Source: Paraspadella gotoi (taxonomy: Eukaryota; Animalia; Chaetognatha). From it: a stretch of 64,000 nucleotides of DNA. The notes below the pieces were generated by a model. That model saw nothing but the letters and a program-made list of their open reading frames with translations. It was not told where the DNA came from and made no database searches. Below, piece by piece: positions 3,396-61,894 of this stretch. Within the stretch, counting starts at the first letter, position 1, and each line of letters begins with the position of its first letter. The position numbers were made by a program, and so were the translations under genes. The stretch lies in NCBI GenBank assembly GCA_051294375.1, contig CM119264.1:20858438-20922437 (forward strand), written 5' to 3'.

Positions 3396-4190
3396 AAAAT
3401 AATAAAATCGTTGTTCAAAACTAAAATCAAACTTTCTCTAGAAAAAAAACATTGTGACATTCTGCATCAAGACCGGACACGCGGACACCGCGGGACCCAG
3501 AGAAAAGCTAATCGAAGATCAAAGAAAAGTGACGACGAGTCCCTTTTAGTCTTGACCACCTAGTCTGCCGATCGAACCCCCCGCCCAAAACACCGTCAGC
3601 CGCGGTCGCCAACGGCCACGCCCTTCGACCCCACCTCCCGGGCGAACCCTCCTCTTCCCTCACCCACTTCCGTGTCGGCAACATAGTCGCGGCTCTGAAT
3701 CACCACTCAAGTCTTAAAACGCAACTGCAGGTGGCTCCCGTTTCAACCTTTTTTTTCAGTTGTTTTTCTTTCTTTCTTCGGGAAGGAAAGTTTTTTCTCG
3801 TTAACCGACGAGAAAACTTGGGCTAAGTTTTCGTTTGGTTTGTTGTGGTCGGGCGTTGTTGTTGTTGTTGTTCTTGTTCTCGCGGTTTTGTCGTTTCGCT
3901 CGTCGTTGGGACGGACGAGAATGTCCGCTCCACCTGAGTTAAAAAGGAATTGTTGCTCAGTGCTTACTTCTTATTCAACCTATGGCAAATAGTAATCAAC
4001 AAATATTACTCTATTGAATGACGAAAATGTCTCTCGTAGACTTCACAATCTTAACTAAATATAAAAATCGGTAGTAAAATCATATGATATCATATGATTT
4101 TACCATACCATACCATACCATACCATACCATTTTACCATACCATACCTAGTGCAAGGTATGGTGGACAAAAATCCACCAACCGTTCATCA

Positions 4191-4263
4191 GCGGCCATTG
4201 GTACTGGGGGCAAGTCATTTGCCTCCAAACCCAAAAGTCCGTGGTTCTAGCCCGGTGGTCGCC
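4191..4263 (+). other. tRNA-derived module in LTR (Gly-like anticodon loop), not a functional tRNA
   Basis: 73 nt; acceptor-like stem GCGGCCA/TGGTCGC; T-arm-like CCGGG-GTTCTAG-CCCGG (perfect in the 3' LTR); loop CTCCCAA in other copies. Confidence 0.6.
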
Positions 4264-4264
4264 T

Positions 4265-4340
4265 AGCAGTTAAAAGGGACGGGGCGCTTAACCCGCCTGA
4301 AACATGGTGTTACAGCCTGATCCGAAGCTCAGGGACTGCT
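4265..4340 (+). ncRNA. Twister ribozyme, P5-type permutation, predicted cleavage U4289/A4290
   Basis: P5 AGCAGTT/GACTGCT; GA+CGG pairing with L4 CCG (T1); TAA-CCC-GCC; P3 TGWAAC/GTTACA; P4 CCTGA/TCAGG closing loop TCCGAAGC (T2 GC/GC). Confidence 0.85.
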
Positions 4341-5159
4341 TATATTGAGCGGTTCTGTCACTAACACATAATAATAATCACTGTCTCTTCATTGGTGAGC
4401 CCGACTTCCGAACACAACAGCAACAACAACACCTTCAGGCGACATGCCTCAATCTGGTGATGCACTTTCCGCCAACAACACATCAGGCAACATGCCTCAA
4501 CTTGGTGACGAACTTTTCACCAACAACAACAATACACTGAAGAGACGCAACAGACTTCTCCCTACGGGAGGGGGATGTATGGGGGACTAAAATCCACCAA
4601 CCGTCATCAGCCGCCATTGTGCCGGAGGCAAGTCATATGCCTCCCAACCAAAGGTCCGGGGTTCTAGCCCGGTGGTCGCCTAGCAGTTAAGAGGGATGGG
4701 GCACTTAACCCGCCTGTAAGAGCTCAGTGACTGCTTATATTGAACGGTTCTGTCACTAACACATAATAATAATCACTGTGTCTTCAAAGGCAAGGAAAAT
4801 AAAATGTATCGATGCGCCGTGGCGATCGATTTTCCTTATCTCGTTCCTAATCTTCCCTCCACTCCGAAAATTCTTAACCCTGTACTTCTTTTTCCATTAT
4901 AAGTTATATTTCTTCTTTTCCAGGAACCCTTCCTCAGCTGATTTTCTAAGTTTCTAAATACTAACCTGTAAACCTATATACTCTTTTTAACTCACCCCCT
5001 CATTCTACCTCGCGTGTCCCATTCCCGGCTCCGCAACTCCACACTCCTCCTCCCAACATTTTTATTGATGATCGTTGCCTTTTTGTTTTCCCTTCGGTTT
5101 TCATTTCCGTTGCTTCACCGACGAAAGTGATGTCAGCCACCTCCGCCGGCTGCGCTGTA

Positions 5160-5236: not shown

Positions 5237-5683
5237 GACGTCGGTTCCAATGTGGCGCCGTTTATGCGACCAATCGCACCGGAAACGACGTCGACAAGGA
5301 CGACGGCTCCTGCGCGCGCGGCCCATTGACGGCGTACGTCAATGGGTTCCGTGATGGGGCAAGCGATCAGGCCGTCAGGCGGTCAGGCGCCAGGGTGACG
5401 TTATAGTGAGTTGACATAGTTTTGACGCACTACTGTCAGACATTAATTAAACAATAATATTAACGAATTATTCTTTATCGTTTGGCGACATACGAAACCT
5501 TATGCTTATGCAATGAAATATGATATTCGTGTGGCCGACGTACGTCTTTAACAACGCCCACGCGGATGATATCAATCTCGTCGAAATACTGCACACGAAG
5601 AAAATGAATTTAACTAAATTGATAGATAATAGAGAACAGAGAGAGAGAGAGAGAACATTATTTTTCGTACGTACTACGTATAT

Positions 5684-7280
5684 TAGGGCGTTGAAAAATA
5701 ACGAAATATTACAAATCAAGTGAGGTAAATAGCTATTTTAGTGTAATAAAGTCTGTAGAATTCGATGATGATAACCATTTTTTTTGTATAGTCTCATCTT
5801 CTTTGTCGGGAATGGCGATTTTTGTAGCACATAAGGTGCTATTAAAATGGAGCAAACATTGTAGAGTATAAAAAACTCAAATATTAAGATTTTATAAAAG
5901 CCATATTTATAAGGCGTAGTAAAATTTCTAAATTTAACTTTACTTAAAATTCTAAATTTGAGGAACGAACAACATTATATTAATGAACATTTATGTAATC
6001 AAAAAATTATAATAAATTTTACAATTTACGCAGTAGGCCATATTTATACTAGTACTAAACCAATAAATGTTAAAATTTCAAAACAGTTTTTTAAAGATTT
6101 TTTTGCAGATTTGGATTCGTCATAAAAAGTTGATAAAAAGAAATATAACTCTTTTGAAAAATTCCTTCATTAAGTGGGTCAAAAATTAGAAAAAGCTATA
6201 TTTTAAGCTGAAAATTAACTTTTTATATATTAAATATAGTTTTTTTAATTTTTAACCCACTAATGAAATAATTTTTTAAAATGATTTATATTTTCTTTTA
6301 TCAACTTTTGACGAAGAATTCAAATCTGCAATCAAAATTAAGAAAAGCCTACTTTGAAAATTTTTGATTTTATAAGGATAGTACTATATATAAATATAGC
6401 CTACTGCGAAAATTAAAAAACATAAAATTAATTTTTTTTACAAATTAATGTTCACTGATGGTATGTTGTTCATAATTGACTTTTAGAATTTTCGTAGGTA
6501 ACTTTCACTACGCCTTAATATTTAACATACATAATATAAAAAAAAGACCCATATAAATATTTTGATAAGTTTATTTACAAATTTTATATTTTAATAATAG
6601 TTTGTTAGCTATATTTATTAATAAATAATAATAAAAAATAAGCTAAAGTGAAAAAATAAAAAATTTTAAATTTTAAAACCGGATTTAAATTCCTTACAAA
6701 AGTTTATATAAGAAACGTATAATCCATTTTAAAAAAATCTTTCATTAAGTAAATTAAAAATAATAAAAACTATTATTTTTGTTTATTTTTCAATTTTTGG
6801 CTTAAAATTATAGTTTTTCTGAATTTTGACCAACTTAACGACATAATTTTGATATAAAAATTATATTTTCTTATATTAACTTTTTGCAAAGAATGCAAAT
6901 CCATGAAAAAATTTTTAAATTATTATTTTTTAACTTTAACCTAATTTTTACTCATAATTATAAAGAAATATAGTTAACTAACTTTTTATAAAACATAAAA
7001 TTTAGAAATAAACTTACCAAAATATTTTTATATATATATATTTTTATATTTCAAAAGCTCATATAAATTTTATAAAATTTTAATAATTTGATTTATCATA
7101 ACTTATAATGGTTTTGCTATTTTATAACAATTTTATATAAATTAAAAACCGTCATTTCCGACAAGAAAGATAAAATTATACAAAAAAATGGTCATCACCA
7201 TCGAATTCTAGACTACATTACACTAAAATACCTATGTACCTTACTTGATTTGTTATATTTTGTTATTTTTCAACGCTCTA
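5684..7280. mobile_element. hAT-like non-autonomous DNA transposon (family M1) with a nested M2 element
   Basis: Long imperfect TIRs TAGGGCGTTGAAAAATAAC.../...GTTATTTTTCAACGCTCTA, 8-bp TSD ACGTATAT; uninterrupted copy at 48833-49842. Confidence 0.9.
5910..6517. mobile_element. MITE family M2 (TIR TAAGGCGTAGT), nested in M1
   Basis: TIRs TAAGGCGTAGT/ACTACGCCTTA, flanking duplication ATATTTA; empty site visible in the 48833-49842 copy. Confidence 0.9.
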
Positions 7281-10200
7281 ACGTATATAGTCATCGAGGA
7301 AAATTATATATATATAATATATTCAGCATTTTTTCGATCAATTATGTAAAGAGCATTTTCAAAACAGACCACTTTACAGATAATGTTTATTCTGAGTATT
7401 AATATTATTATAAAAAAAAACACAAATGAATTCTTTCGAAATTTCATTGCTCGCTTAGAAATTATTTTAAATTATTTTTCGTTTACAAATGTTAACCAAA
7501 GTTTCACTCTCACTCTCTGTAAAAATGAATGCAACATAATATAATTCGCCTGTTCGATTCCATTCGCTTTTCTGATTTCAATAAATCAATTCATCTCATT
7601 TTGTTCGCAATTTTTATCTCGAGTGGAGATCATGATTTCTAAAATGTTTCAAAAGTAGAAATGTGTCCAAATAAGCACAAAGTAAAAAAAGAGAGCACAA
7701 AATCAACTTAGTTGAAACTAAAAAATCGAAATTTTTAACGTCATTAAACTCAATTTAACAATATTGTACATTCGGTAGATTAATTTTGAGAGAAAGCGAA
7801 GATTTTCAAATTTCCGACGAAGCATGTTCCACTGTTCCACCAAATGGTTTTACTGCGAACGTCTTCGGTAGATGGGAAAATTGTGACGGATTGTGAAGGT
7901 TACGAGTAATTGCGAAAGTGGAGTGATTACGAAGGTTGCGTGAATGATTGTGAAAGCTGTGAGTGATTGCAAGAGGTGAGGAACCGCGTCGAGTAGAGAA
8001 GAACTTGAACGACTTGTGTTGCCCATGAACGCCGCTGAGCCAAACGGTTTTTGCCGTCGTCGTCGTCATCGTCGTCGTCTTCGTCGACGTCATTGTTTCA
8101 AATGAACTTACTTTCTTTTGTTTACAATCTGTGTTAGAAAAACATTGAACCTGACGAATTAACATCCTAGAAACCTTAGAGGACTGCCAATCCAAAAATT
8201 GTTGTATTTGTTTTAATTTCTGTTATAATTATATATGTTCTCCATCGATATTACTATCGTTCATTTTTCTCCAACGCGATCGTCATCGCCGTCGTCATCG
8301 TCGTTGACGGCGTCCTCCTTTCACGCTCGGGTTCATGACGTCACCACTGTCGTTTGTTTCCGACAAAATGAGTCGAACGTTGACGACGACCACAATGACG
8401 ACGACGACGACAAAGACGACGGTCGTGAGAACAAAGAGGAAAATGTTTACTCATAATTTTTCGAGGTGAAGTCGCGTCCACGACGCTGAAACGGCGTCGA
8501 AACAGCGCCGGTTAAAAGCGGCGGCGGAACCGAGTGCTTTGTTTTCAAGTGTAGCAGGGAATCAGCTTTCGCAGATGCGAATATTTCATTTCGTCCTTAA
8601 CTAATTTATTTTTTAAATATTACGTAATACATAATTAGCAAAATTATTGAAGCTGAAGCTCGTTTTATCTTTTAAAAGCGACTATTTTTTTCACGCTTTG
8701 CCTATCATTGTTGGAAATTTAACCGTGGGTCCGATAGCCAGAGTCCACCTCTCTTTATCGCCCTCTGCAAGTCGACTTTCAAATCGATGTTTTCCCGACG
8801 TGAATAATGATTTTTCGATAATTTCTTTCCTGCAGGAAAATCATGTGACTTCAAAGTTACTGATCGTGGGAACACGTGAACGCGAAAAAAAACGAGACGG
8901 GAAATCCATGCGTGGACCACGTGATCGAAGTAGTCGTAGAAAACCGCCAACGCCTCGACGAGCAACAACGACAACTTAAGTTCTCAAAATTGAGTGTTTC
9001 TAAAGGTATTTGATAGACGAGAATCTCGCTTAAAAAAAAATTCAACATTTTTCTAATAGAGAATTCCGTTCAAATCTGACTACCCAAATTCCAAACACGT
9101 TTGCCAGAAATTCGGTTAAAAAACACTTGTAAAAACGCTCGATTCCGAGAGCGTTACATCTGAAGAGCTTGTCCTATTCGTTTTATGGCATTTGATAAAG
9201 GATTTAATATCAAACAAGCCAGGGGAAATGTACTATTCATCTCTGGAGAATTTTCAAACCTCATTTTTACTATAGAAATGAAAGGGAAAGTTTACAAACT
9301 TAAAATTGCAAACGGGATTGCTATATGTTCCTGTTACATGAGCGACTTCGAATTTCGCGATTCTGATAGCTTTGTGTCTGAAGAGCTTGTCCTATTTTTC
9401 TTTTTTCATTTTATAATGATTTTGACATAAAATGATCAGGTTTAAATGAAATAGTCCGGTTTGAATCGCGAAATTTTTTTTTTAAAAGAAATTAAAAGGA
9501 AGGTTGAGAAAAAATCTGATTTTTCCTAATATATTTTAAAGGAATAAAGATAAAGGGATGGCAATAGTACCAAAATGAAGCCATAATCATAGGGCACATA
9601 CAAGATACAATTTTAGAATTACTTATGCTGAAACCTCCTTACAGGGTGAGTGTCAAACTAAGTCAAAATTATAATGAATTTTAAAACTAATGACACCCCA
9701 TAAGAATAAATGAAAATTTAATTCTTTTTAATAATTCTGAAAGAAAAAAGGCTAAATTGTACTCTAGTAAAACTTTAAAGTTTTTTGGATAAAAAAATGT
9801 GAATTTTTTGTCACTTAAATATTTGCTTGTCTGATTTTACAAGCATGCTTACAAAATTCTACAAAATATTATTTACCCCATCACAGCCTAAGTATTTATC
9901 CTTCTTTTCCACCAGCAAAAAGTAAACATTATCTTGTTGAAGAGAACAGGGATGTTTACTGAAAGGAGCCGAAAGTCATTCAACTTCTTCACTTTGATGT
10001 TATTTTTTAATAATAAAATAAGCAAAATTTTTAATTATTTAACTCTCATAGGCTTCATAAGATATTACACTTTCATAATATCCCAATGTTAATGTAATTT
10101 ATTATATTTTTTACCCAGAAATCATAAAATAACAGAAAGTTGTGGATTCCCTTCGCTCGTTTAAGAAAAAAAAATTAACTAGCGGAATAATAAGTTTGTA

Positions 10201-12053: not shown

Positions 12054-12947
12054 TTCGTCGCCGGAATAAAAAACGTCTTTACGAACGCATGACTATTGTC
12101 TGAGCTAAATTAATCTACGGTCAACCGAAGGCGAGCGTAAAATTTTTTTTCTTCTTTTTTTTAATCTTTTGTGCGAAATCGTTTTAATACTATACGAGGA
12201 GCTAGTTCGGCTAGACAGTAAACGCGATGTTTGAAAGAAAAACTTCTCTTTAATAAGGTTGCTGTTTTGGGGTCTTTCTATTTATTATTTTATAAGGAAT
12301 TGAGAACATGTAAAACATTTATCAGAAAGAATAAAGCATTAGAAACATTCTTGAAATATTTATTTGAAACCTGTCGCTATAAAAAATTGACCATACGAAA
12401 AAAGGTACATAAAGAAAAGACACATACATTTTTTCTATATAAATTTTATGATAATTGATTTTGCTTTGAGTTCGTAATGCGCGAAACAGGATAAGGAGCA
12501 AATTCGAGCATTTTAATCAGAAATAAAAGGAAATTCGTCACTAGAAATTCATGGCTATATTAATATGGGTATCAAAATAAAGTCCGTTATACTTATAAAT
12601 TTATTCAGGAATATTGAATCTTAAAACTAAGGTAGTTATATTTCTGAACCTCATAACTTTGAATGGTCCCCAAGAAGATATTTGTTATGCTACAGAATCG
12701 GAAAACATATTATGAAATTGGTACAACCAATATAAAAATTATCCATTATATTATACAGTTTTTTAAGAGCTTTCAGGTTATATCAATATTATTGCTATTT
12801 TTTTTTAAATCGTCTTGAAAGAGAGGTGTAGTCGGGCATTGCCTAGGTTCTCCGCGCCTAGAAGTTGTGACCCGTTGGCTCATTGAGTAAAGCCATCAGC
12901 TCATGACCTCTAGGTACCGGATTCAATCCCAACCCGGTACCTACCCT

Positions 12948-13027
12948 GCGGGAAGCGTGAGGACGGCCGTAAGCCGCCTTTGGGGCATGGAAAACCCTCA
13001 AGCCTGGTTCCAAGCCCAGGGACCTGT
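12948..13027 (+). ncRNA. Twister ribozyme, P5-type, predicted cleavage U12970/A12971
   Basis: P5 GCGGG/CCTGT; GA+GGA pairing with L4 TCC (T1); CGGCCG; TAA-GCC-GCC; P3 TTGGGG/CCTCAA; P4 CCTGG/CCAGG closing loop TTCCAAGC. Confidence 0.8.
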
Positions 13028-13275
13028 TCCATGGCTGCAAGAGGGGGTTATAGAAGTTACGGACAGTCATCTTCAGCCCACATAGCGCCTTATCCACACT
13101 GGTGAGCCCATCCTGTTGAGCGTATTCCAACCTTCTGATTCCAGGCCCTTGGTCTAGCTGAAGATTGCTCCCCTCCCTCCACTGGAAGCAGTGCAGGGTG
13201 GGTTACAATTTGGAGGGCATGTAGTCGGGCATTGCCCAGGTTCACCCCGCCTAGAAGCATGGCGCCTTTAGTTGT

Positions 13276-13348
13276 GACCCGGTGGCTCATTGAGTGAAGC
13301 CATCAGCTCATGACCACTAGGTACCGGATTCAATCCCAACCCGGTTCC
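13276..13348 (+). other. tRNA-derived module in LTR (Met-like CAT loop); second copy at 12869-12941
   Basis: 73 nt; A-box-like TGGCTCATTGAG, loop CTCATGA, B-box-like GGATTCAATCCC, partly pairing ends GACCCGG/CCGGTTC. Confidence 0.6.
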
Positions 13349-13354
13349 TACCCT

Positions 13355-13434
13355 GCGGGAAGCGTGAGGACGGCCGTAAGCCGCCTTGGGGGCATGGCAA
13401 ACCCTCAAGCCTGGTTCCAAGTCCAGGGACCCGT
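13355..13434 (+). ncRNA. Twister ribozyme, P5-type, 3' LTR copy, predicted cleavage U13377/A13378
   Basis: Same fold as 12948-13027; P5 GCGGG/CCCGT; L4 TTCCAAGT turns one T2 pair into G-U. Confidence 0.7.
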
Positions 13435-14130
13435 TCCATGGCTGCTAGAGGGGGTTATAGAAGTTACGGACAGTCCACGTAGCGCCTTATCCACAGAGGC
13501 AAAATTTTTTTCATTCAAAAATATTAAGTTATCGAGCTTAAAAACCTCTCACCGTTTAAGTAAAAGTAAACTAAAGGACATGATATCTATACATAAAAAT
13601 TTGTATGTTTTGTCTTTAACGATCTGTTTTTAAAATGTTAAAATCTCTTTGTTTTCGTTTGCGAAATATTTTTTAGCGGCGAGTTTCAAATGGTCACATA
13701 GTAACTTTTAAAAAAATTATCGTTTTTCTATTTATTAACGTTTAAACAATAACATATCTGTAACATATCCATTTGAGCCCTTTAACGAAAAATAGTTTCG
13801 GTGACATTCTCCAAGACTGCCAATACAATTGCGGGACCACCTACCCTCTCCTCTTTCATCGTCGAGGAAAAAAGGAAAACCTCGGTGACCTTATATATCC
13901 AGGGGCCTCATCTACGGTCCTCATAAAACGTGGCCATAATTTGAGGAAATGGCTCCTTTTTCGCCTTCGATCTCCCGCAGGCGGCACCATAAACAAACCC
14001 AAACGCGACTTTTTTCCACCTCGTCGAGATTCGCCGTCTGGGCACAACCACTTTTTCTTCATCATTCCCCGTCTTTCTCTCTTCCTTTCTTTTATTCTTT
14101 TTTTCTTTGTTTTATTCTTTTTTATTTTTT

Positions 14131-21868: not shown

Positions 21869-22329
21869 AGTATACTTTCAATGGACCAAAAATTTCTTAA
21901 ATAGCTCCATACCCTAGTAATTAATTTTTTAATATTTATTTATAGATAGGAAGGGCAAACAATTTTTTTGAGAAATGTTAAATTTTAAAACCAGTTTCAG
22001 ATAGCTCATAAAAGTTATCTACACAAAGTATAATTCTTTTTTAAAAATTTTCATCATAAGCAGGTCAAAAAAAGAAAAACTGCAAAAAAATATCATCATC
22101 ATCATCTTTAGATGATTTTATCATTTTTTTTAGATTTATACTTAGAAAATGTAAGAAGTTTAAAAGCTGTAATTATATTTCTTGTTTAACTTTTTATGCT
22201 CGATCAGAATCCATCAAAAAATTTTAAGATTTCAAAAAAAATTTTTGTCTTTTTATAATAATATAATAATTTTAATTAGGCTAGTACCCTCAGAAAAAAA
22301 ATTTTTTGACAAAAAATATCTATGCTCAT

Positions 22330-23050
22330 TAAGGCGTAGTAAAATTTCTAAATTTAACTTTAATTAAAATTCTAAAAGTGAAGAACGAACAATATTATAT
22401 TAATGAACATTTATATAATAAAAATATTTATAATAAATTTTACAATTTACACAGTAGGCCATATTTATACTAGTATTAAACCAATAAATGTTAAAATTTC
22501 AAAACAGTATTTTCTAAGATTTTTTTGCAGATTTGGTTTTGTCATAAAAAGTTGACAGAAAGAAATATAACTCTTTTTGAAAAATTCCTTCATTAAGTAG
22601 GTCAAAAATTAAAAAAAGCTATATTTTAAGCTGAAAATTAATTTTTTATATATTAAATATAGTTAATAGTTTGATTTGGTCTTTTCATGCCAATAATATA
22701 AAAGGAAAACAAATTATTTCTGGAAGTAACATAATATTTATTTTTAAATAACAAATAAATATTAAATATAGTTTTTTTAATTTTTAACCCACTTAATGAA
22801 AGAATTTTTAAAAATGATTTATATTTTCTTCTATCAACTTTTGACGAGGAATTCAAATCTGCAATCAAAATTAAGAAAAGCCTATTTTGAAATTTTTCGA
22901 TTTTATAAGGATAGTACTATATATAAATATAGCTTACTGCGAAAATTAAAAAACATAGAATTAATTTTTTTTACAAATTAATATTCACTGATAGTATATT
23001 GTTCATAATTGACTTTTAGAATTTTCGTATGTAACTTTCACTACGCCTTA
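22330..23050. mobile_element. MITE family M2
   Basis: TIRs TAAGGCGTAGT/ACTACGCCTTA, 8-bp TSD ATGCTCAT. Confidence 0.92.
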
Positions 23051-23424
23051 ATGCTCATGATAGATTATCTTAACGTTGTATACATTAGCATTTAAATTTC
23101 ATCGGCTCTGGCTACTTAGAGTGAAGAGGTCGCCCAAGGTCATCGATGACATCAAAGTTCATGGCTGAGGCTCTGACTCGGTTTACGTTGTCGATCCGAG
23201 TTTTTTCGCTAAAAAAATTGAAACTACCACAGACGCGAGTTCAGCGGCCAAAGGCTTTCACCACTCCTCTCGCTCCCCTGTAATGAACCAGAAGGAGCGG
23301 ACTGCTCCTCCTCATCCTAACCACTCCTTCGAAATGGCACCCAACGCTCGGCCTCGTGGCGTCGATGGACCGAAACGGAAAAAGTCGAGGAATTTTTCAA
23401 TCATTAACGAATTCGAGTGAAGCG

Positions 23425-31100: not shown

Positions 31101-33934
31101 ACTTGAATATTGTTTACTTATATTACCTTCATAATTAACTCTAATTGACCAAAATTTCTTTAAAAAATATGTTCGAATGTTTTTTCAGGAAAATAGATAA
31201 TTGGCTAGAACATTTTTGGCGTCTTCCCTCACATATTCCTCAATATTTAAAAATTTATTTAGGGGATTTAATAACAGGGTTTTAACCTAATTAATTCTGA
31301 ATTCATAGGCACTGTGATAGGGTCCATATGCAGAAAGGGCAGCAGTTATGACAAATCAAATGGATGTCTGACTTCTTAAAATCTACAATTCACTTGGTCT
31401 GAAGGATTTTCTACAAAGGATATTACCCCTTATATCCATGTCCATGTTCCATACACCATACTGTTATTGTGTGTTTAAATCTAAATTAAGTGGAGAGTTG
31501 TTTGAAGCGCCAAAATGATAGCATTAAAAAAACACACCTCCGTCGAACAACATCATAAAGATCAAAGCAAACACTAAAAATGGGAAAAGACGTGGATCAA
31601 AAAATGAGGCCCCAGACAATTCAAGAGAGTAAAAAAAAAATTGTTAAAAAAGAGGAAAAAAAGCCTAGCATACTTTATCAGAAAGGGAAAAAAAAAACTG
31701 AAAATGGCAATAATGAGGAAGAAGTTTATCACATAAAATCTTGTTTATGAAAGTCCTTAGTACATCTTGACTCACAAAATTTAATATTTGAAAAGACTGG
31801 CACCCCGACCTCAAATTAAGCAATAGAATCAAAACTTGAAAATCAGCTTATGGTGCTCGTTGGGAAAGGAAAATTTCGATTATCACTACGGTTAGTTAAA
31901 AATATCTGCCAATTTTTTAACTATCAATAAAAATTGAGGGTCATTGTTTAAAAAATAGAGCAGGTACTATAATACAAATCTGTCAACATGCCTGTCAATT
32001 GCTTGACAATGTTACAAAATTTTGACTACTTTACCAAAGCGTGCCTTTGCTATAAGCTTTTAATATTTTTGCGTTGATATAATTCTTTTTAAAACATTAT
32101 GTTGTTGCCCTGTAAAAAAAAAATGGTTTTACTATTTCTTCGATGAAATGTCATTATTACGAAAATGTCAATTTGACAAGGAAAAACAAATGGATTTAAA
32201 AAAAAGGTAAAGATTTAAAGCCCCTTTAAATTAGTATAAATTTCAATTTTAAATTAGCGACTTAATGTCATGATTTCTGAGATTCTTTGAAAAAAAAATA
32301 AAATTACAAAAAGCCAATAAAAAACTTAGTTTATGCTTTTCTTATTAAAAATTTGAACTATGTTTGATGAAACGTTGATTTACCAAAAAAATTACCATTA
32401 CTGATTACTGATTTTACAGTAAAAATTATCATTTTTTTTAAAGATATAAAAGCTCCTCTTTGAAGTGTTGCAGTTTGGTTAAAACATTGGGCAATTTTGG
32501 GCTGCAACCACTTGGTATTTTCATTACACGCAAACCGAAAGACTTTATAATAAATTTTGCGCTTCTCATTGTTTAATCAGGTTGGATTTGGTGCCCGCCG
32601 CCCACGGTTTTCTCTTCGGCCGCTCTAATGATGCAGCGTTTTGCCAGATCTTCTGGCGGCAGTAATCTCCTGCCGGCTTCGGTTTACTTTTGTTATTTGA
32701 CATTTAAATAGTTTAAAATATATTTTTTTCCTTTACAATTTGATTTCTTTTTCCACTTAAGTGAATCATATTACTTATTCCGAGTTGTGGCTAAAGAATT
32801 ATGATAAAAATGCTAATAATTCTATAATTATTTTTTTTGCCAATTACCATAGGAAAATAAAGTTAACTATCAGGCATAGCCTACCTTACAAAGACGTCCA
32901 TTTATAATCATTTGTATGCTCGTTTTAGGAGAAAGGCCCAATTTAAGCAGGCTAAAGCCAAAAGCGATGAACCATTTATATCTATGTGCATTGTAAATAA
33001 TCTTTGAAACATTATGCGACTCCCTTGAGGGAAGCCAGGTACTCTGGAGTGTATAAACGAGACTGTGCAGAAGAAGTCTTCCATTAAAGCTTGGAGAACT
33101 GCTATTTATCTTGTAAGGCCTTAAAACACCAAAGCCTATCAAGAGTCATGGGCAAAAGATAGCTTAATATTAAATTAATGGGATAATTTATTATTGGCTG
33201 TACCCAAGTTTCATATTCACATTTAAAAAAAAAAGTATTTTCTTCATCCTAAAATTATAATGAAATAATAAGATCGAAAACTTTAACAAAAAAGGAAATA
33301 GATTTTTAAAAAAATTCTTTAATTTTTTTTTTTATTCGATCGGAATCTCGGTAACGAATTAAACTTCGTAAGCAAAATATCATTTGTTTATTAGCCAATT
33401 TTAAAAACGTACGATGTTTTGTTCGAGATGAAAAAATATTGATTATTAATTAGAAAATGATGCAGAGGATTTCAATTAATCCGTAGTTTAGCCAACTTTG
33501 TCTTAGAGTTAAAATTTAATCATTTTGTTGGTAATATTCTAACAATATTGAAAAAAGTGTTTTTTTTTGCTAAATACCTCGATAAAAAATCACTGCCAAG
33601 AGAAGAAAGAGCTCAAAAATGAGCTGCCCCCCCCCCGGGCGGACAAAGGTGGGACGCTGACGATGTGATCGGGTCATTGGCTTGTCATAGACTGAGATGA
33701 TATTCGTGTAGAGTGGGATATCATGGGTCAGGTAAAGACCCGCCTGGAAAATACCAAGTGCCACTCTAATATCTCTTTGGCCTGATAAGCCTGATGAAGC
33801 CCTCCTCTCACCTGACGGTGAGGTGGTCGGTTGCCTGTTCTTGCCTGTTTCGGTGCAGGAGATTCTCTCTCTCTTTCACTTTTCACCATTTCAAAATTAT
33901 CTTCTCCTTCATCTGGCCACTGTCCTTTACTCAG

Positions 33935-34015
<81 letters not shown>

Positions 34016-34049
34016 ACTTAATGTGTAGAGCATTTTGTTAATGTTTTTC

Positions 34050-34094
34050 ATAGCTGATGAAGACTCTAACCAACAGATTCGAAATATGTACTCT
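34050..34094 (+). ncRNA. Minimal type I hammerhead motif, slightly degenerate; duplicated at 39009-39053
   Basis: CTGATGA-A-GACTC..GATTC-GAAATATG-TA. Confidence 0.65.
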
Positions 34095-37000
34095 TAATAA
34101 TAAAAAAATCGTTGTATTGGCACATTAATAAACCTTTCTTAATATTCACTTAGCAACGAAAATAGAGAAAATATACAATGTCTACATATAATCTATAACT
34201 TTTTTGCAAATGAAAAAATCTGAAAATTAAAATTGTTACTTTTTATCATCCAATGTTTAAAGAAAGATATAACGTCAGCAAAAGGTAGCGCTTCAAAAAA
34301 AAGCTGTAACATTTAACGAAATATTTTTTGCCGAAATTGTTTTCAAACGCGAAAGGTTGACCACAAATGTGGCCGCTCTCTCCCTCTAATCTGCCGGGCA
34401 TAAATGAAACGTAAAAGCATTTACGCGCCAATCGGCCAATCAGTCGCCACCATCGCCAACTCTGACGCACAAACTTAAGCGCCAGCGCCACTACCAACAC
34501 CGACGCCGCGACCGCAATGGAAGGCGACTGCAGACAGAAGGAGATAAACAAGAAAATCACGAGCAACGCGGAGAAGATAAGGTCAAATGAGTTGAGGAAG
34601 AAGGGAAAGTGGGGGGATGGGAGGAGGAGGAATGAGAGGGAGGAGAGGGTATTGCGCGCCAGTTTTAAAACGGCAGGAGAGGCGTGCCTCGGGACCCTTG
34701 AAAGCCAAGCTCCTCCAATCCCTCACAATTCCATTAAAACTTGACAAGACTACATTTGTATAATTTTTGTGGTTTTTTTTTAAAATATAAGTGTTATTTT
34801 ATGTATCTCCTATTCTGTATTTTTTTATCTGTTTTACTTAGGTAGGTAGGTAGGTAGGTAGGTAGGTCGGTTGATATTTGCGCCGTTTTTTTACACAACC
34901 TCGCCAAAACGATACATGAAAAATATTTAACTTTCCTCAGAAATTTTTAAACATCATTAAGAAACATATGAATCGTGATGAGAAGATTTTCTGAAAAAAA
35001 TTGGTCCGTACGAGAAATAAAGGTCACTGATTATTTACGGGATTGTTCTTTTTTTTTTTTTTGCTCTTTTGAGAGAAACTCGAGATGTCAGGAGATTATA
35101 GAAAAAAAAAAGAAAAGATTTAGGATCAAATGGTAAATTTTTTTAAAACCATTCTGACTTCCATCGTTAAGGAATGAGTTACGCTTATTGATATTGATGA
35201 TTAATGATCTACAAGCCGGCAGTCCACCCTATTGAAAATTCAATAATTTCCAAAGTGAATTGTTGAATAAAACTAAAGTTTTAAATTAAAAAATGTTACA
35301 TTTGAGTATACCAAAATATTATCTTAAACAACAATTACCACAATTTTTAAAGAATGAAGATAAAAATCCATTTTAATTATAATATAAAATTATTCTATCA
35401 TATACTTTGCAAAAACTATTGTCAGCGACGCTAAACTAAAAAAGTCAATAAAATTATTTCCACATTTTCATTGAACTTCAAGAAAACAATTTTCGTGTTT
35501 ATGCCTTGTCACTTGATACAGAACATCCTGATAAACTAAACCACTCTTCATCAAGTCGTCTTAGGTTTTCCGACCTTTTTATTTCCATTCGAAATTTAAT
35601 TTAAGATCTGCACGATATCCCATCCTAAGGTTTTATAATTTCTCTCTCTCCATCAAATTCCAACACGTTGCGTAGATCGACCGGCTCATATTTGCTTGTA
35701 AGCGAAATATGTTCCTGAAAATAAGTAAAAAAAAGAACGGAAGAAAACAAGTTCAACTCGTAAATCAAAAAGAGAAGTCCCTAATTCGGAACAAATTCCG
35801 AGAACTAATCGCAGAGGTAATAAAAAAGGTACAAAAGGAAGTGGAATGATTATATCCTGATTTATATTATTATTTTGATTATTTGTCGGATCGTTACCAA
35901 GATCGATCGAGGTGGGATAAACTTACCCGAACTGAGATCGCCTGGAATAATTATTCTCGAAATCTCGAGGATTAAAGTGACAGTCTTCGACAAAATTTGA
36001 GCATGCGCAAAAAAAAGAATTACAACTACAACGACAAGGTCTACTACAAAACGACAACTGAGAAAAAGAAAAACAACTTACGGATTCTACAAAGTAAGTT
36101 TGGACGAATAATTTTCCAGGTCAAATCTGCGTCACAACGTAACCTGACGAAAATTTAAACCCGACCTTAAAAAAAAACTTGAATGACTGGTGCCCCGCCT
36201 TACGAAATCGCCTAAACTCAAGCGAAAAAAACTTTTTCAATTTCTTTTTTTATTTTTAAGATTTATTTTCTAAAAATTGTGCCATAATTACGTTATGTTC
36301 TGATTTGTACAAACAAATTTTTATTTTATATATAACTTCATGAACTCATTTTCTTTTCGATACTTTTATTTTTGAAAAACTGGATTCGAAGTGTTTTTTT
36401 CCTTTCCTTTTCGGTATTGTTGTCGTTGCTCGTCTTCGTCCTCGGGGTCTTTGTCCTCTTGGTTGTTTTCATTCGCCTTATGGTGTCGTGATTATTATGT
36501 TATAATTATAAACTATGATTTATATATTAGATATCAGTGTTTTCTAAATTAATATGAAATTAATGTTTTCTAGTTGAAAATTAATTTTTACAACCGTTTG
36601 TGTGAACGGACGAACGGTACGACGAGCATTATTTAAAAAAAAACATATTCTAAGTCAATTCTTTCGACTATTTTTTTTTATTTTTAAATAAAATACCTTC
36701 AATAAAGTGTAGATAATTATCAGTAAACTGTAAATCAATTACTTTATTCTTTTCCAGACCAAACGTTAATTATTGTAAATAAAAAATGCTATACTAACAA
36801 ACTTTGGTAATCTTACCAATAAAAATGATGTAAATAACTGTCTTTGTTCTTGCACTTTGTCGTTTCTTTATTATTTACCGTCTGGTCGCGGCCAACGAAA
36901 TTCTTGCATCACAGTGACTTCAAAGTGCAAACCCTCGTTGAGTCTCTGTAAGTATTGGGTTTATCTGCCCTGGAGTCTCTGTTAACAATTTTTTTTCTTT

Positions 37001-38924
37001 TTTTTTCAGAGTTTGCGACAGCAAAACCAATGTTATTTAGACCAACGGGACGAATTCTTCTGCCCTGCAAATGGTATGAAATAAATTTGTTTCCAAAATT
37101 AAAATTTGAAACTCGAATAAACACTGTTTTAACTTTATAAATTAAGACATAATTTGTATATATATCGAATTTTATAATTGTTCCGGCATTTTACGTATCT
37201 TTCACGATAAATTTCCTACTTAATACAACATATTGAATCACAAGAAATGCGTCGTAAAAGAAACGGTGTGTGAAATACCGGGATGGAACCATATATCCGA
37301 AGAAAAAAAATCATTACTATAAAACTGTTAATAATTTCTTGAAATGTGAATAAATATTCAAGTTGTTCTCTTTCTTAACTTTTAGCCAATATATCGTTTG
37401 TTTTCAAATACTTTGATGCTCTGTTTTCTCCACGCGGTTTGGAAGAAAAAATGTTTGTCTAGTCTCATTCTAAAACATACCAGATAAAATTATTTATGAA
37501 AGGTTGAAAAAATTAGACGGTAATAAGTCAGGTTCGGGTAAATTTTCTAAAAATTTTGTTTTACTTACCTTAAATAAATTAAAATATGTTTATTTGGATG
37601 CTTATAAAAATTTGAAGATTAAACGCACATTATAATTATCATAAGTAGGCTTAACTCCTATGTAATACAAAGCGACTAAATATTTTTTAGTTGGTTTAAA
37701 TTTTTTTCTTTTAAAACACTGGCAATGAAAGTAAAAGGCCAGAAACATCTTTTACACGATTTTATAGTGTATGTTAAACAATCCATAACACTACTATTAA
37801 GTTGCCGGTATAAGGTCCTGCTTTTTTCCCAAAAAAAAATTTTAAAAAATTTCGTTTTTTACGTGTTCCCCAGCGGACGTAATCAAGAAAAGACCGACGT
37901 GTCCGTCAAGCCTTGAAGAAATGCTTCGACGCAACCACACTGCCCTGCTGGTGGATGACGCGGACAGGCTGCTCAACTTCACTTCGACAGGTGGACGCGT
38001 CAGGAGAGTTGTCCCAACGGGCTACGACGACAAAATAGGGCTCCCAGTATGACGTGGGCGAGAAAGAGAATAATTTTTTATTAGTTCTGTTGCTCCAGCA
38101 TTATTCAATATCTTCCATATATTACAAATATTCATTATCGTTTATTCATTCATTATTCATCATTCATCATTCACATTCATCATTCATTCATTCATTCATA
38201 CATATCCCATAATCGCAGTGAAGAAATCATGGAGAATCTTTATACATTATATTACTGTTTGTCACTGTAGCGTATGCAGGACAGAAGAAAATCCTTTGCC
38301 TCTATGCTAGTCTGACTCTGCTTACAGCTAGACCCGACTCTATAATTCACTTTTGTCGGTCCGGTCGTCCTGCCTCCCTCATATATGTACACAACTTATA
38401 TCATGCTCAGAACATCGATAATTATTCGAAAATTATGATAAAAAAAAAAGATATGTTCTCTATATATACACATATGTATAAACAGATAAAGGAGTCCGTC
38501 CGTCCGTCCGTCCGTCCGTCCGTCCGTATCCGTCCGTCTCGCGCTCGCCCCTGTCGTCCGTCCGTCCGTCGCGATCGCCGTTCGCCCACGACTTAGCCAA
38601 AACCACATAACTCGTAGTGTTTTAATTATGAATTGGGAATGGATATTGAAATGTGTGGGTAGAAAGGTGGTATTGAGCTGGTATATGATTTTGATGAATC
38701 TCGTGAGTGGAAAATGAAAAATGACAAAAATTAAAAAATAATTCACTATGCAACGACCAATTACTCAAGGAGGGATGGGTTGATGACTGAAAATCTCTCT
38801 CTCCCNNNNNNNNNNNNNNNNNNNNNNNNNTCTCTCTCTTTCACTTTTCACCATTTCAAAATTATCTTCTCCTTCATCTGGCCACTGTCCTTTACTCAGC
38901 CCTCTCTCTCTCTCTCTCTCTCTC

Positions 38925-38973
<49 letters not shown>

Positions 38974-41793
38974 ACTTAATGTGTAGAGCATTTTGTTAAT
39001 GTTTTTTCATAGCTGATGAAGACTCTAACCAACAGATTCGAAATATGTACTCTTAATAATAAAAAAATCGTTGTATTGGCACATTAATAAACCTTTCTTA
39101 ATATTCACTTAGCAACGAAAATAGAGAAAATAATACAATGTCTACATATAATCTATAACTTTTTTGCAAATGAAAAAATCTGAAAATTAAAATTGTTACT
39201 TTTTATCATCCAATGTTTAAAGAAAGATATAACGTCAGCAAAAGGTAGCGCTTCAAAAAAAAGCTGTAACATTTAACGAAATATTTTTTGCCGAAATTGT
39301 TTTCAAACCGCGAAAGGTTGACCACAAATGTGGCCGCTCTCTCCCTCTAATCTGCCGGGCATAAATGAAACGTAGAAAGCATTTACGCCGCCAATCGGCC
39401 AAATCAGTCGCCACCATCGCCAACTCTGACGCACAAACTAAGCGCCAGCGCCACTACCAACACCGACGCCGCGACCGCAATGGAAGGCGACTGCAGACAG
39501 AAGGAGATAAACAAGAAAATCACGAGCAACGCGGAGAAGATAAGGTCAAATGAGTTGAGGAAGAGAGGGAAAGTGGGGGGATGGGGAGGAGGAGGAAATG
39601 AGAGGGAGGAGAGGGTATTGCGCGCCAGTTTAAAACGGCAGGAGAGGCGTGCCTCGGGACCCCTTGAAAGCCAAGCTCCTCCAATCCCTCACAATTCCCA
39701 TTAAAACTTGACAAGACTACATTTGTATAATTTTTGTGGTTTTTTTTTAAATATAAGTGTTATTTTATGTATCTCCTATTCTGTATTTTTTTATCTGTTT
39801 TACTTAGGTAGGTAGGTAGGTAGGTAGGTAGGTCGGTTGATATTTGCGCCGTTTTTTTACACAACCTCGCCAAAACGATACATGAAAAATATTTAACTTT
39901 CCTCAGAAATTTTTAAACATCATTAAGAAACATATGAATCGTGATGAAGAAGATTTTCCTGAAAAAAATTGGTCCGTACGAGAAATAAAGGTCACTGATT
40001 ATTTACGGGATTGTTCTTTTTTTTTTTTTTGCTCTTTTGAGAGAAACTCGAGATGTCAGGAGATTATAGAAAAAAAAAAGAAAAGATTTAGGATCAAATG
40101 GTAAATTTTTTTAAAACCTTTCTGACTTCCATCGTTAAGGAATGAGTTACGCTTATTGATATTGATGATTAATGATCTACAAGCCGGCAGTCCCATTGAA
40201 AATTCAATAATTTCCAAAGTGAATTGTTGAATAAAACTAAAGTTTTAAATTAAAAAAATGTTACATTTGAGTATACCAAAATATTATCTTAAACAACAAT
40301 TACCACAATTTTTTAAAGAATGAAGATAAAAATCCATTTTAATTATAATATAAAATTATTCTATCATATACTTTGCAAAAACTATTGTCAGCGACGCTAA
40401 ACTAAAATAGTCAATAAAATTATTTCCACATTTCATTGAACTTCAAGAAAACAATTTTCGTGTTTATGCCTTGTCACTTGATACAGAACATCCTGATAAA
40501 CTAAACCACTCTTCATCAAGTCGTCTTAGGTTTTCCGACCTTTTTATTTCCATTCGAAAATTTAATTTAAGATCTGCACGATATCCCCATCCTAAGGTTT
40601 TATAAATTTCTCTCTCTCCATCAAATTCCAACACGTTGCGTAGATCGACCGGCTCATGTTTGCTTGTAAGCGAAATATGTTCCTGAAAATAAGAATTAAA
40701 AAAAAAGAACGGAAGAAAACAAGTTCAACTCGTAAATCAAAAAAGAGAAGTCCCTAATTCGGAACAAATTCCGAGAACTAATCGCAGAGGTAATAAAAAA
40801 GGTACAAAAGGAAGTGGAATGATTATATCCTGATTTATATTATTATTTTGATTATTTGTCGGATCGTTACCAAGATCGATCGAGGTGGGATAAACTTACC
40901 CGAACTGAGATCGCCTGGAATAATTATTCTCGAAATCTCGAGGATTAAAGTGACAGTCTTCGACAAAATTTAATGCGCAAAAAAAAAGAATTACAACTAC
41001 AACGACAAGGTCTACTACAAAACGACAACTGAGAAAAAGAACAACAACTTACGGATTCTACAAAGTAAGTTTGACGAATAATTTTCCAGTCAAAATCTGC
41101 GTCACAACGTAACCTGACGAAAATTTAAAACCCGACCTTAAAAAAAACTTGAATGACTGGTGCCGCCTTACGAAATCGCCTAAACTCAAGCGAAAAAACT
41201 TTTTCAATTCTTTTTTTATTTTTAAGATTTATTTTGCTAAAAATTGTGCCATAATTACGTTTATGTTCTGATTTGTACAAACAAATTTTTATTTTATATA
41301 TAACTTCATGAACTCATTTTCTTTTCGATACTTTTATTTTTGAAAAACTGGATTCGAAGTGTTTTTTTCCTTTCCTTTTCGGTTATTGTTGTCGTTGTGC
41401 TCGTCTTCGTCCTCGGGGTCTTTGTCCTCTTGGTTGTTTTCATCGCCTTATGTGTCGTGATTATTATGGTTATAATTATAACTATGATTTATATTATTAG
41501 ATATCAGTGTTTTCTAAATTAATATGAAATTAAGTTTTCTAGTTGAAAATTAATTTTTACAACCGTTTGTGTGAACGAGGCAACGAGTACGACGAGCATT
41601 ATTTAAAAAAAAACTATTCCTAAGTCAATTTCTTTCGACTATTTTTTTTTATTTTTAAATAAAATACCTTCAATAAAGTGTAGATAATTATCAGTAAACT
41701 GTAAATCAATTACTTTATTCTTTTCCAGACAAACGTTAATTATTGTAAATAAAAAATGCTAACTAACAAACTTTGGTAATCTTACCAATAAAA

Positions 41794-59370
<17,577 letters not shown>

Positions 59371-61894
59371 GTCAGACAACTTTTTCTTTTTTTTTTCTCA
59401 TTCTGTTTTGTCGGTTTTTAGAGTCGAATGAAGTCTTTCTTTCTTTTTCCTAGGTTTTTATCTCGCCAGACAGACCAAACCCGTCTTAGCGAGATAAAGC
59501 GAAAGCAAGGCTTCTTTGTGTCGTCGCTATTGTGTTATCATGGCTATTTAAAGTGTGATATCATAGGGAGTTAAAAATTTTGATATGGCTTCTAATCATT
59601 AAGATCTTTGAAATTGTCATTTTTCATATCAATAATCGTATTTGTTTATGTTTTATTTACAAAACAAAAACGTTTTAGATTATTGATATGAAAAATGACA
59701 ATTTCAAAGATCTTAATGATTAAAAGCCATATCAAAAATTTTAACTCCCTATGATATCACACTTTAAATAGCCATGATAACACAATAGCGACGACACAAA
59801 GAAGCCTTGCTTTCGCTTTATCTCGCTAAGACGGGTTTGGTCTGTCTGGCGAGATAAAAACCTAGGAAAAGAAAGAAAGACTTCATTCGACTCTAAAAAC
59901 CGACAAAACAGAATGAGAAAAAAAAAGAAAAAGTTGTCTGACCGCGTGACATTGCAATCTCTTTTTATCGAAACACTTGGCGGGACGATCTTGACATTCA
60001 GAGAATTTGACGCCTTCTTTCAACTGATACGCGAAGTCACAGTTGAAGTCGTCGACTTCGATTTTGACATCGAGATCCGGGGGAAGGCAATATCTGAACA
60101 TCGTGATATTGACCAACTTGGCCCCTGAGGAAATAAAAATAAGTTGGAGTATAAGAGATACCACAGTTACTTTTTTCCAGACTCTTTTTCGCTTTATTAG
60201 TATTGGCACAACTAAAAAAAGAGCCTTAATATGTTTTTTTGGTTCAGCTCACCGGTCTGGGAGTGTTAAGCTTGCAACTGAAAGCGGCGTTTAGTCGAAG
60301 ATTCTCAAAGTTGTACTGTATAGACTGCATGCTCTCGGTCTCGTTGGTTTCTGGGAGCCCTGGACTCTCCGTGTCGTCTTGAAAGTCCGCGTTCAATCCT
60401 AAGTGATACAGTACCGGTCTTGGCTTTCCTTCATAAGTCCAGGGAAGCTATATCTTCTATAATAATGAATGGAATGACTTGATATGCATGTGTGGGATGG
60501 AACTCCGTATGGTCTATTCCCCATTCTATATTTCAAAAAAAATTTTTGAAGTTTTGTTTTGAGCATCATTTTTAAACAAAATTTAATTTGCATACTGTGC
60601 TCAAAATACTTGAACGATATAATTTTTTTTCTCAGTAAAAATTAATCTAACATTACTTGGTCTAATGGTAAAGTGTTAGGCTGAAAAACAATAATTATTT
60701 ATTAATTTATGCATAGTTGCTAATTATAATAATTAGCTTATTATTTATTTTTATTTATTACTTCAACTTTTTATTATAGAAATTAATAGTTGATTGATAG
60801 GCAATTTTATTCCTGTAATCAAATTATAATTTGTTTTATTATTAACTAAATAGTGTTTTTATTATATTACTACACAAATATGATTTTTTGTTAAATAATA
60901 TTTTTTTAAAAAAATTATGCCAAACTATTGGTGAAATGTCACTGATTACAAATATATAAATTTTTTTAAATTTGGATAATCCCTTAACGAAATACAGTCC
61001 CAAAAAGCCCTAAAAATGGTTAAAAACACCTATTTTTTAAACCTTTCTAAAAACTGCAATAATGCGAATTTTCAACTCAAACTTTGTAAGGTATATAAAA
61101 TTGGTAGTATTTTATTGCCTGAAAAAATTAGAGATGTAGTAATAATTTTATCTAACTATACAGATTAAATAGGGAGACGTACTAAGAAATTCAGGTAATT
61201 TTAAATTTTGCTGAGGTCGTCTAATTTTTCTCGATATTTTATCGTCACTTTCCCTTTTTCTTTCCCCCTTTCTTTTTTCTCCTTTTTTTGCCCTTTGCTT
61301 TTGCCTTTTCCTTTTTTTTGCCCTTTCATGCAATAATATATATTACATTTAGCTAAAAATAAATAATCCCTCTTATTTTACTTTTTCTCTCTTTTTCTTT
61401 CCCTCTTTAAAATTAACAAAGAAGCAAATGAAATAAAACGATGAATGAAAAAATGAATAAAAAACCAAATAAAAAATTATTTTAAAAAATTTAAAAATTA
61501 ATAATAGAAGGAACGAATCTTAAAAAAGACATATAAAAAGAATAATGATGATATACTTTTTTAATTAAACTGAAAAATATATTTATTAATCAATAAATAT
61601 TTTGATCAATCGATAAATCAACCAGTCTATCAATAAATTAAAATTCATATTTATATTATGGTCAATGACAATTGGTCATAGTTTATGAAAGACTAACACA
61701 GAAAACAAGCTTTAAGAACTAACAACTACAAAATAATGGGGAATAGAAGAAGTAGAGAAAGAAAAAGAGAAAGCAAAAGAGAGAAAAAGAAAACAAAATA
61801 TAGAATTAGAATTTGATGGTATCCTTTCGTTTCGTTGTGTTATGAGATTAGCAAAAATATTTGTTTTGTTACAACAATTTTATTTGACATAAAG

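Follow-up and report, generated by a model that had tools for sequence, protein, structure and literature searches.

A candidate twister ribozyme in the LTRs of miniature retroelements of Paraspadella gotoi, and a possible double-twister route to circular RNA

A 64,000-nt stretch of the genome of the chaetognath Paraspadella gotoi (hereafter the window) raises the question of whether a self-cleaving ribozyme can reside in the LTRs of an animal miniature retroelement and, if so, what part it plays there. An earlier note on this DNA had described a 629-bp non-coding LTR element with a permuted twister in its 5′ LTR (copy 1 of what we call family A). The element is as described, with its LTRs, PBS, polypurine tract (PPT) and TSD AAGG in place, and all the twister landmarks that had been named were found at their positions; the LTRs are real as well, with the qualification that they start with TA and not TG (Table 1). 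Family A LTRs begin at a TA (4158 and 4576-4578) that lies two bases further in than a TG next to the PPT; family B, introduced below, starts with TG.

The two LTRs of copy 1 differ by 19 substitutions in 209 aligned columns and by a 22-nt deletion in the 3′ LTR that takes away parts of P3, P4 and L4, as had been noticed before. LTRs within one family A copy differ at 9-11% of columns, and both copies in the window are therefore old. To see how far the ends hold, we used assembled contigs from public runs of one organism (three studies; nine of 11 runs contain part of the window): X1 contigs exit family A at 4158 (n = 94), 4391 (n = 98) and 4787 (n = 43) into unlike flanks, and because they exit at the same three points, the ends hold across the family. 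Summed contig depth over the element is about a thousand times that of the flank in X1 and X5, a figure not usable as a copy number. Family A is a high-copy family with fixed ends, and as a dispersed repeat shorter than 1 kb with two LTRs and no coding region it has the features by which a TRIM is recognized. PBS, PPT and TSD are all present, and each of the three full copies (family A copies 1 and 2, family B) has a TSD of its own; reproducibility of TSD and PBS, on which the earlier note had made its reading depend, is thus seen in copy 2 (AAGT) and in family B (GAGG, same PBS).

Table 1. Features of the miniature LTR elements in the window (positions count from the first nucleotide of the window).
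Feature	Position	Strand	Basis or context
Family A copy 1, non-coding miniature LTR element	4158-4786	+	two LTRs, PBS, PPT, TSD
TSD AAGG, family A copy 1	4154-4157 and 4787-4790	+	sequence
5′ LTR, copy 1 (234 bp, TA...CA)	4158-4391	+	contig ends at 4158, 4391
Degenerate tRNA-like head	4191-4263	+	family A; not called by Rfam or ARAGORN
7-bp acceptor-like stem	4191-4197/4256-4262	+	family A head
B-box-like motif (9/10; A box weak, 6/9)	4243-4253	+	family A head
Candidate P5-permuted twister core, 5′ LTR	4265-4340	+	family A; descriptor, natural-twister consensus, covariation
P5	4265-4270/4335-4340	+	family A core
P2′	4274-4277	+	family A core
GA	4278-4279	+	family A core
T1′	4280-4282	+	family A core
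Self-complementary hexamer GGCGCU, replacing helix P1	4283-4288	+	family A
Predicted cleavage site U/A	4289/4290	+	twister consensus; PMC8501958
P2	4292-4294	+	family A core
T2	4295-4296	+	family A core
P3	4297-4315	+	family A core
P4	4316-4320/4329-4333	+	family A core
L4	4321-4328	+	family A core
PBS, family A copy 1	4393-4405	+	12/13 against the tRNA-Trp PBS in the PMC10886601 supplement
Internal duplication, two 46-nt copies 48 nt apart	4435-4528	+	
Polypurine tract, family A copy 1	4566-4575	+	sequence
3′ LTR, copy 1 (209 bp); twister 5′ half and U/A site (4706/4707) kept	4578-4786	+	
Family A copy 2, TSD AAGT	46919-47560	-	both twister cores decayed, T2 broken in each
Family B element, TSD GAGG	12827-13495	+	found via twister covariance model
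Family B LTRs, TG...CA	12827-13098, 13220-13495	+	13 substitutions/262 columns
Family B A-box-like (7/9) and B-box-like (9/10) motifs	12876-12930, again 13283-13337	+	
Family B PBS, same as family A	13100-13109	+	
Family B short PPT	13212-13217	+	
Family B 5′ candidate twister core, hexamer CGGCCG, predicted cut 12970/12971	12948-13028	+	all helices paired
Family B 3′ candidate twister core, predicted cut 13377/13378	13355-13435	+	all helices paired, one G-U in T2
Decayed solo LTR, family B-related, 25% diverged	56519-56784	+	

The window is repeat-rich, with 33% G+C. Notch-like EGF and WSC-like coding stretches lie at 45252-45440 and 47643-47861 (+ strand), and copy 2 is antisense between the EGF-like and the WSC-like stretch. 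A tandem duplication of ~5 kb (33866-38794 and 38831-43842; 92% identity), a near-perfect inverted repeat of 1.5 kb (58905-60408; 98%) and MITE-like inverted-repeat families (5683-7281, 48837-49838, 22327-23052, 53917-54540 and 55639-56203), one nested in another at 5910-6517, were also seen. All four LTR-element insertions in the window have the target form RAGK (4154-4157, 47561-47564, 12823-12826 and 56515-56518), a form not evident among the contig flanks listed for the public runs.

We screened the window with a relaxed permuted-twister descriptor, drawn up after the sequence had been inspected, and obtained one match (G4278), with 0 matches in 60 shuffled windows and 0 in 20000 LTR shuffles. 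Against the natural Twister-P5 consensus, family A keeps GA, U-A-A, GC and L4; one T1 pair is swapped on both sides, L4 is closed by A-U, a P3 is added, the P2 strand is 3 nt long and there is no P1 hairpin. P4 has 5 bp, and P2 has 3 bp with a bulge but only 2 bp in the 5′ LTR of copy 1; the pairing of a 3-nt with a 4-nt P2 strand, with one bulge, recurs in every lineage. The 5′ LTR of copy 1 has private letters at 4274 and 4300, where 98-99% of contig depth differs, and in the middle of the family A core the common variants listed in reads are confined to the P3 loop, apart from one copy-private letter.

Rfam gave 0 matches at gathering score over the whole window. The search with its twister models that the earlier note had proposed did not find family A, even at E ≤ 10, and no Rfam hammerhead matched the element, the motif being of twister form. 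Of 4227 families, Twister-P5 (RF02684) ranked highest in each family B LTR, with scores (17.1 and 16.8 bits) below its threshold of 37.6 bits, and its alignment to family B draws P1 as a stem whose loop has zero length. For comparison with natural sequences, 70 loci of P5-type twisters were collected by motif from viral contigs (20 were run against Rfam, and 3 matched Twister-P5), and a covariance model was built from 10 natural viral-contig twisters. The top-ranked site of this model in the window was 4297-4337 (E = 0.038), the next 12954-13024, and it was through the latter that family B was found. The T1 form GACGG/UCCGAAGC occurs in complete natural twisters, found at 8 of 15 loci (6 distinct), the search pattern having required it, and a 3-nt P2 strand is seen in one natural twister (L139:17-70). 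Among viral loci, 0 of 10 with an A-U-closed L4 and none of 36 with a 3-nt P2 and GACGG were structured. A search of viral contigs for relatives gave 0 matches; the seven returned from metagenomes all lacked the structure, and blastn found no similarity in any of them; and a 6-nt-linker pattern returned one viral and eight prokaryotic matches, none with P4 (best 9.2 bits). One viral contig (L001:58-119) has two P5-type twisters ~200 nt apart. Published work on twisters reports that P1 is dispensable and P2 bulges are tolerated, and that pseudoknot mismatches are not (PMC11662667).

Families A and B share no similarity by blastn. In local alignment of A with B, the core scored better than all shuffles (0 of 500 reached it), against 280 of 500 for the head, 90 of 500 for the tail and 23 of 500 for the internal region. 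We examined covariation in six cores, leaving out the deleted 3′ core of copy 1: pairing holds in 88% of cells, and 11 of the 23 pairs, located in P5, P2, T1, P4 and the hexamer, differ at both positions. All three pairs of the T1 pseudoknot are altered on both sides, and T2 is invariant except for decay and one G-U. In the solo LTR, P2, T1 and the hexamer core (GAUC) show additional changes that affect both members of a pair. Cells changed on both sides number 24, compared with 10.5 after shuffling (reached in 0 of 500 shuffles; slid controls, 0-4 cells), counts that overstate the case and are not probabilities, the six cores being three related lineages. Counts of further pair types did not stand out from the shuffles (65 of 500). 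The covariance that had been expected across copies is present across the cores of A, B and the solo LTR and not within family A alone, where it is not significant; the compensatory P4 change reported for copy 2 is likewise real, and by itself not significant (reached by 163 of 500 shuffles). The two LTR families cannot otherwise be aligned, and the twister is the sole part they keep in common; this ties it to the life cycle of the element, and it has very probably been kept by selection. As read from sequence, both the assignment to twisters and the retrozyme-like layout have good support, chiefly through the second family.

The motif departs from an ordinary twister at helix P1, which cannot form within a single motif, where only a palindromic hexamer occupies its place. 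Exactly six bases lie between T1′ and U-A-A, and they are self-complementary in each lineage: GGCGCU in A, CGGCCG in B and a GAUC core in the solo LTR, this third palindromic core having been read after the palindrome idea had been recorded. A descriptor without the palindrome requirement found three sites in the window, with the palindrome in 3/3, and a 4-nt palindromic core is present in 6.7% of window hexamers. Between them, the two LTR hexamers of one transcript could build a P1 of the usual kind, 6 bp long (duplex energies, -8.3 and -10.7 kcal/mol). The presence of a self-complementary hexamer at the place of P1 in all lineages points to a double twister made by both LTRs. Such a swapped fold would be nested, with the inner and the outer core on one P1 and the inner core amounting to a type-P1 twister in which P5 closes off the body of the element. 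In family B the energy of this fold is 5.7 kcal/mol below that of two separate cores; with pseudoknots not counted, both constrained folds of the precursor are 27-33 kcal/mol less stable than the free minimum and the hexamer pairing probability is 0.085. In family A, the palindrome is broken in two of the four LTRs in the window (both 3′ LTRs), and the change that breaks it is absent from the variants listed at 1% in four runs. For animal hammerheads with a palindromic helix III, cleavage as dimers has been reported (PMC6765202, PMC7229834). The earlier picture of one independently cutting twister per LTR is thus probably incomplete, and we lean clearly, if not strongly, toward cleavage that depends on a dimer. 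If the double twister is right, a single-LTR RNA (4255-4345) could look falsely inactive by itself.

The nearest competitor, which we regard as possible but unlikely, is that each LTR motif is a P5-type twister that cuts alone, its P1 being a single pair with a tetraloop, and that the route to a circle is otherwise the same. The reported dispensability of P1 in type-P1 twisters (PMC11662667) speaks for it, and so does the pairing of all the remaining helices within one LTR. It leaves unexplained, however, why a self-complementary hexamer stands in three lineages with three different cores; the swapped fold is the better of the two; and a circle that retained an active core would reopen.

With the double twister as the working model, transcription would run through both LTRs, perhaps from the Pol III-like head, and the transcript would fold so that both LTR motifs share one 6-bp P1. 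Cleavage at both U/A sites would free a monomer of 407-417 nt, which RtcB may ligate into a circle, and a Gypsy-type helper may then reverse-transcribe the circle from the PBS. The predicted monomers are 417, 415 and 407 nt (the last for family B), though LTR and internal lengths vary, and the unit of ~417 nt proposed earlier is correct as the computed length for copy 1. RtcB is reported to circularize animal hammerhead retrozyme RNA in vitro, and for plant retrozymes it has been proposed that the circle is reverse-transcribed starting at the PBS. Pairing in the predicted circles exceeds that of shuffles only mildly (z = -1.9, -2.2 and 0.04). In copy 1, the inner core is fully paired and the outer core, in the 3′ LTR, is deleted, so that at most one cut is predicted; copy 2 is decayed; in family B the motif is intact and paired in both LTRs. 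The hairpin 4276-4298 competes with the nested twister fold and is better by 9.6 kcal/mol; it puts U/A in an 8-nt loop and could be an off state or a ligation substrate. No reverse transcriptase or helper domain was found among the 94 ORFs scanned (of 179 of at least 70 aa, plus some longer). On this model, the predicted cleavage is probably part of the element cycle, and a circular RNA stage is somewhat favored. The full combination of a non-coding animal miniature LTR retrotransposon with double-twister excision, a circle and copying by a helper seems to us rather more probable than not. The still broader proposal, a radiation of animal LTR retrozymes on a dimeric twister with half-competent cores, strand swap, a cut after full transcription and a self-protected circle, stands in our view in even balance.

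The LTR heads bear on both the start of transcription and a second alternative. A B-box-like motif lies 22-28 nt upstream of the core in both families. Scores refer to the Pol III A/B box consensus, and the thresholds, chosen after looking, were reached by 26 and 10 of 5000 shuffles. Rfam tRNA models matched neither family's head. ARAGORN called a tRNA-Tyr at 13341-13438, which we rejected, as it overlies the family B twister core; a sigma-70 promoter scan was set aside as irrelevant to the host. Family B has no run of four T on the sense strand; both family A copies have a T4-T5 run inside, where at 4517 most contig depth reads otherwise. From these motifs, a Pol III promoter in the LTR head may be present or absent with about equal probability. 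Under the alternative, the element would be a Helenus-like TRIM derived from a SINE that carried a twister, with slow cutting or a role in shaping RNA ends, and with a linear RNA that has an R repeat and no circle. The B-box-like heads of families A and B, the weak folding of the predicted circles and the strong competing folds suit this view, as does the proposal that Helenus arose by SINE insertion into an LTR (PMC10886601). It is nevertheless improbable, more so than lone cutting: between A and B only the core is kept, with its pseudoknots compensated; an efficient cut would remove the R repeat; and the monomer lengths converge.

Palindromic dimer signals occur in retroelements, and the motif might be a dead twister relic serving as an RNA dimerization or packaging signal, its palindrome acting as a kissing loop for the Gag of the helper. 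The palindromic hexamer does lie in an exposed loop and gives the duplex energies above, but A and B both keep the catalytic G, U-A-A, the adenines of L4 and the two pseudoknots, none of which a kissing loop would require, and we consider this reading very unlikely. That the resemblance to a twister is due to chance could draw on the missing Rfam match of family A and on the readiness of motif-only patterns to match randomly in large collections, but it is already largely refuted by the descriptor shuffle controls and by a second family with covariation, and its probability is negligible.

Engineered twister/RtcB systems circularize RNA, and the element, if the double-twister model is true, would be their natural counterpart. 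It would also be the first animal LTR retrozyme, the first with a twister, and the first natural double twister. Should the predicted cleavage take place, retrozymes as a strategy are limited neither to plants nor to hammerheads, two different ribozyme classes have each evolved the dimer trick, and animal repeat libraries conceal a class of twisters that score below Rfam thresholds; twisters are widespread in animals and almost without an assigned role. No twister-bearing LTR element, TRIM or SINE and no dimeric twister was found in the full-text literature, whose coverage excludes most subscription papers, Repbase and the PMC11662667 supplement; within that coverage, nothing contradicts the earlier note, to which no described twister-LTR retrozyme was known.

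Among ribozyme-bearing animal elements, the Perere-3 twister of Schistosoma (PMC8501958) is likewise a ribozyme in a retroelement and has a similar P3 arm, but Perere-3 is a non-LTR element with a type-P1 twister at its 5′ end. Sm-alpha SINEs (PMC6765202) show the same order of Pol III promoter and then ribozyme, there a hammerhead in a non-LTR element. The element resembles Helenus/TRIMp3 (PMC10886601) as a small animal TRIM with a 4-bp TSD, a Gypsy-type tRNA PBS and Pol III box-like LTR motifs, and differs in having a degenerate head followed by a twister instead of a T-run. In the searchable text of that paper a twister is not mentioned, and four family A motifs had no match in its sequence supplement as extracted, where line breaks could mask one.

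The core is like the type-P5 twister (RF02684) in strand order, GA, U-A-A, GC, L4, both pseudoknots and P4; it differs in the palindromic hexamer in place of the P1 hairpin, in a P2 that pairs a 3-nt strand with a bulged 4-nt strand, in the presence of P3, and in its sub-gathering score. With the dimeric hammerheads of newts, axolotl and Penelope-like elements (PMC7229834, PMC6765202) it shares a cut-site helix reduced to one pair and a palindromic tetraloop. There, tandem copies supply the partner; here the ribozyme is of another class and lies inside LTRs with a PBS and a PPT, and according to two papers animal retrozymes have neither LTRs nor a PBS or PPT.

The closest parallel is with the plant LTR retrozymes (PMC4918200), which are also non-coding, with a ribozyme in each LTR, a PBS, a PPT, a 4-bp TSD and Gypsy-type signals, and in which, as in the unit predicted here, the stretch between the two cuts lacks the R repeat. 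The host here is an animal, the ribozyme is a twister instead of a type III hammerhead, the PBS is tRNA-Trp-like and not of tRNA-Met, and the unit is ~410 nt compared with 600-1000 nt; unlike the plant elements, ours is likely dimer-dependent, and its predicted circle is weakly self-paired. As a model, then, the element would be a TRIM, similar to Helenus but matching none of its listed families, that works like a plant LTR retrozyme but without the hammerhead, its ribozyme being of twister type though below the Rfam score.
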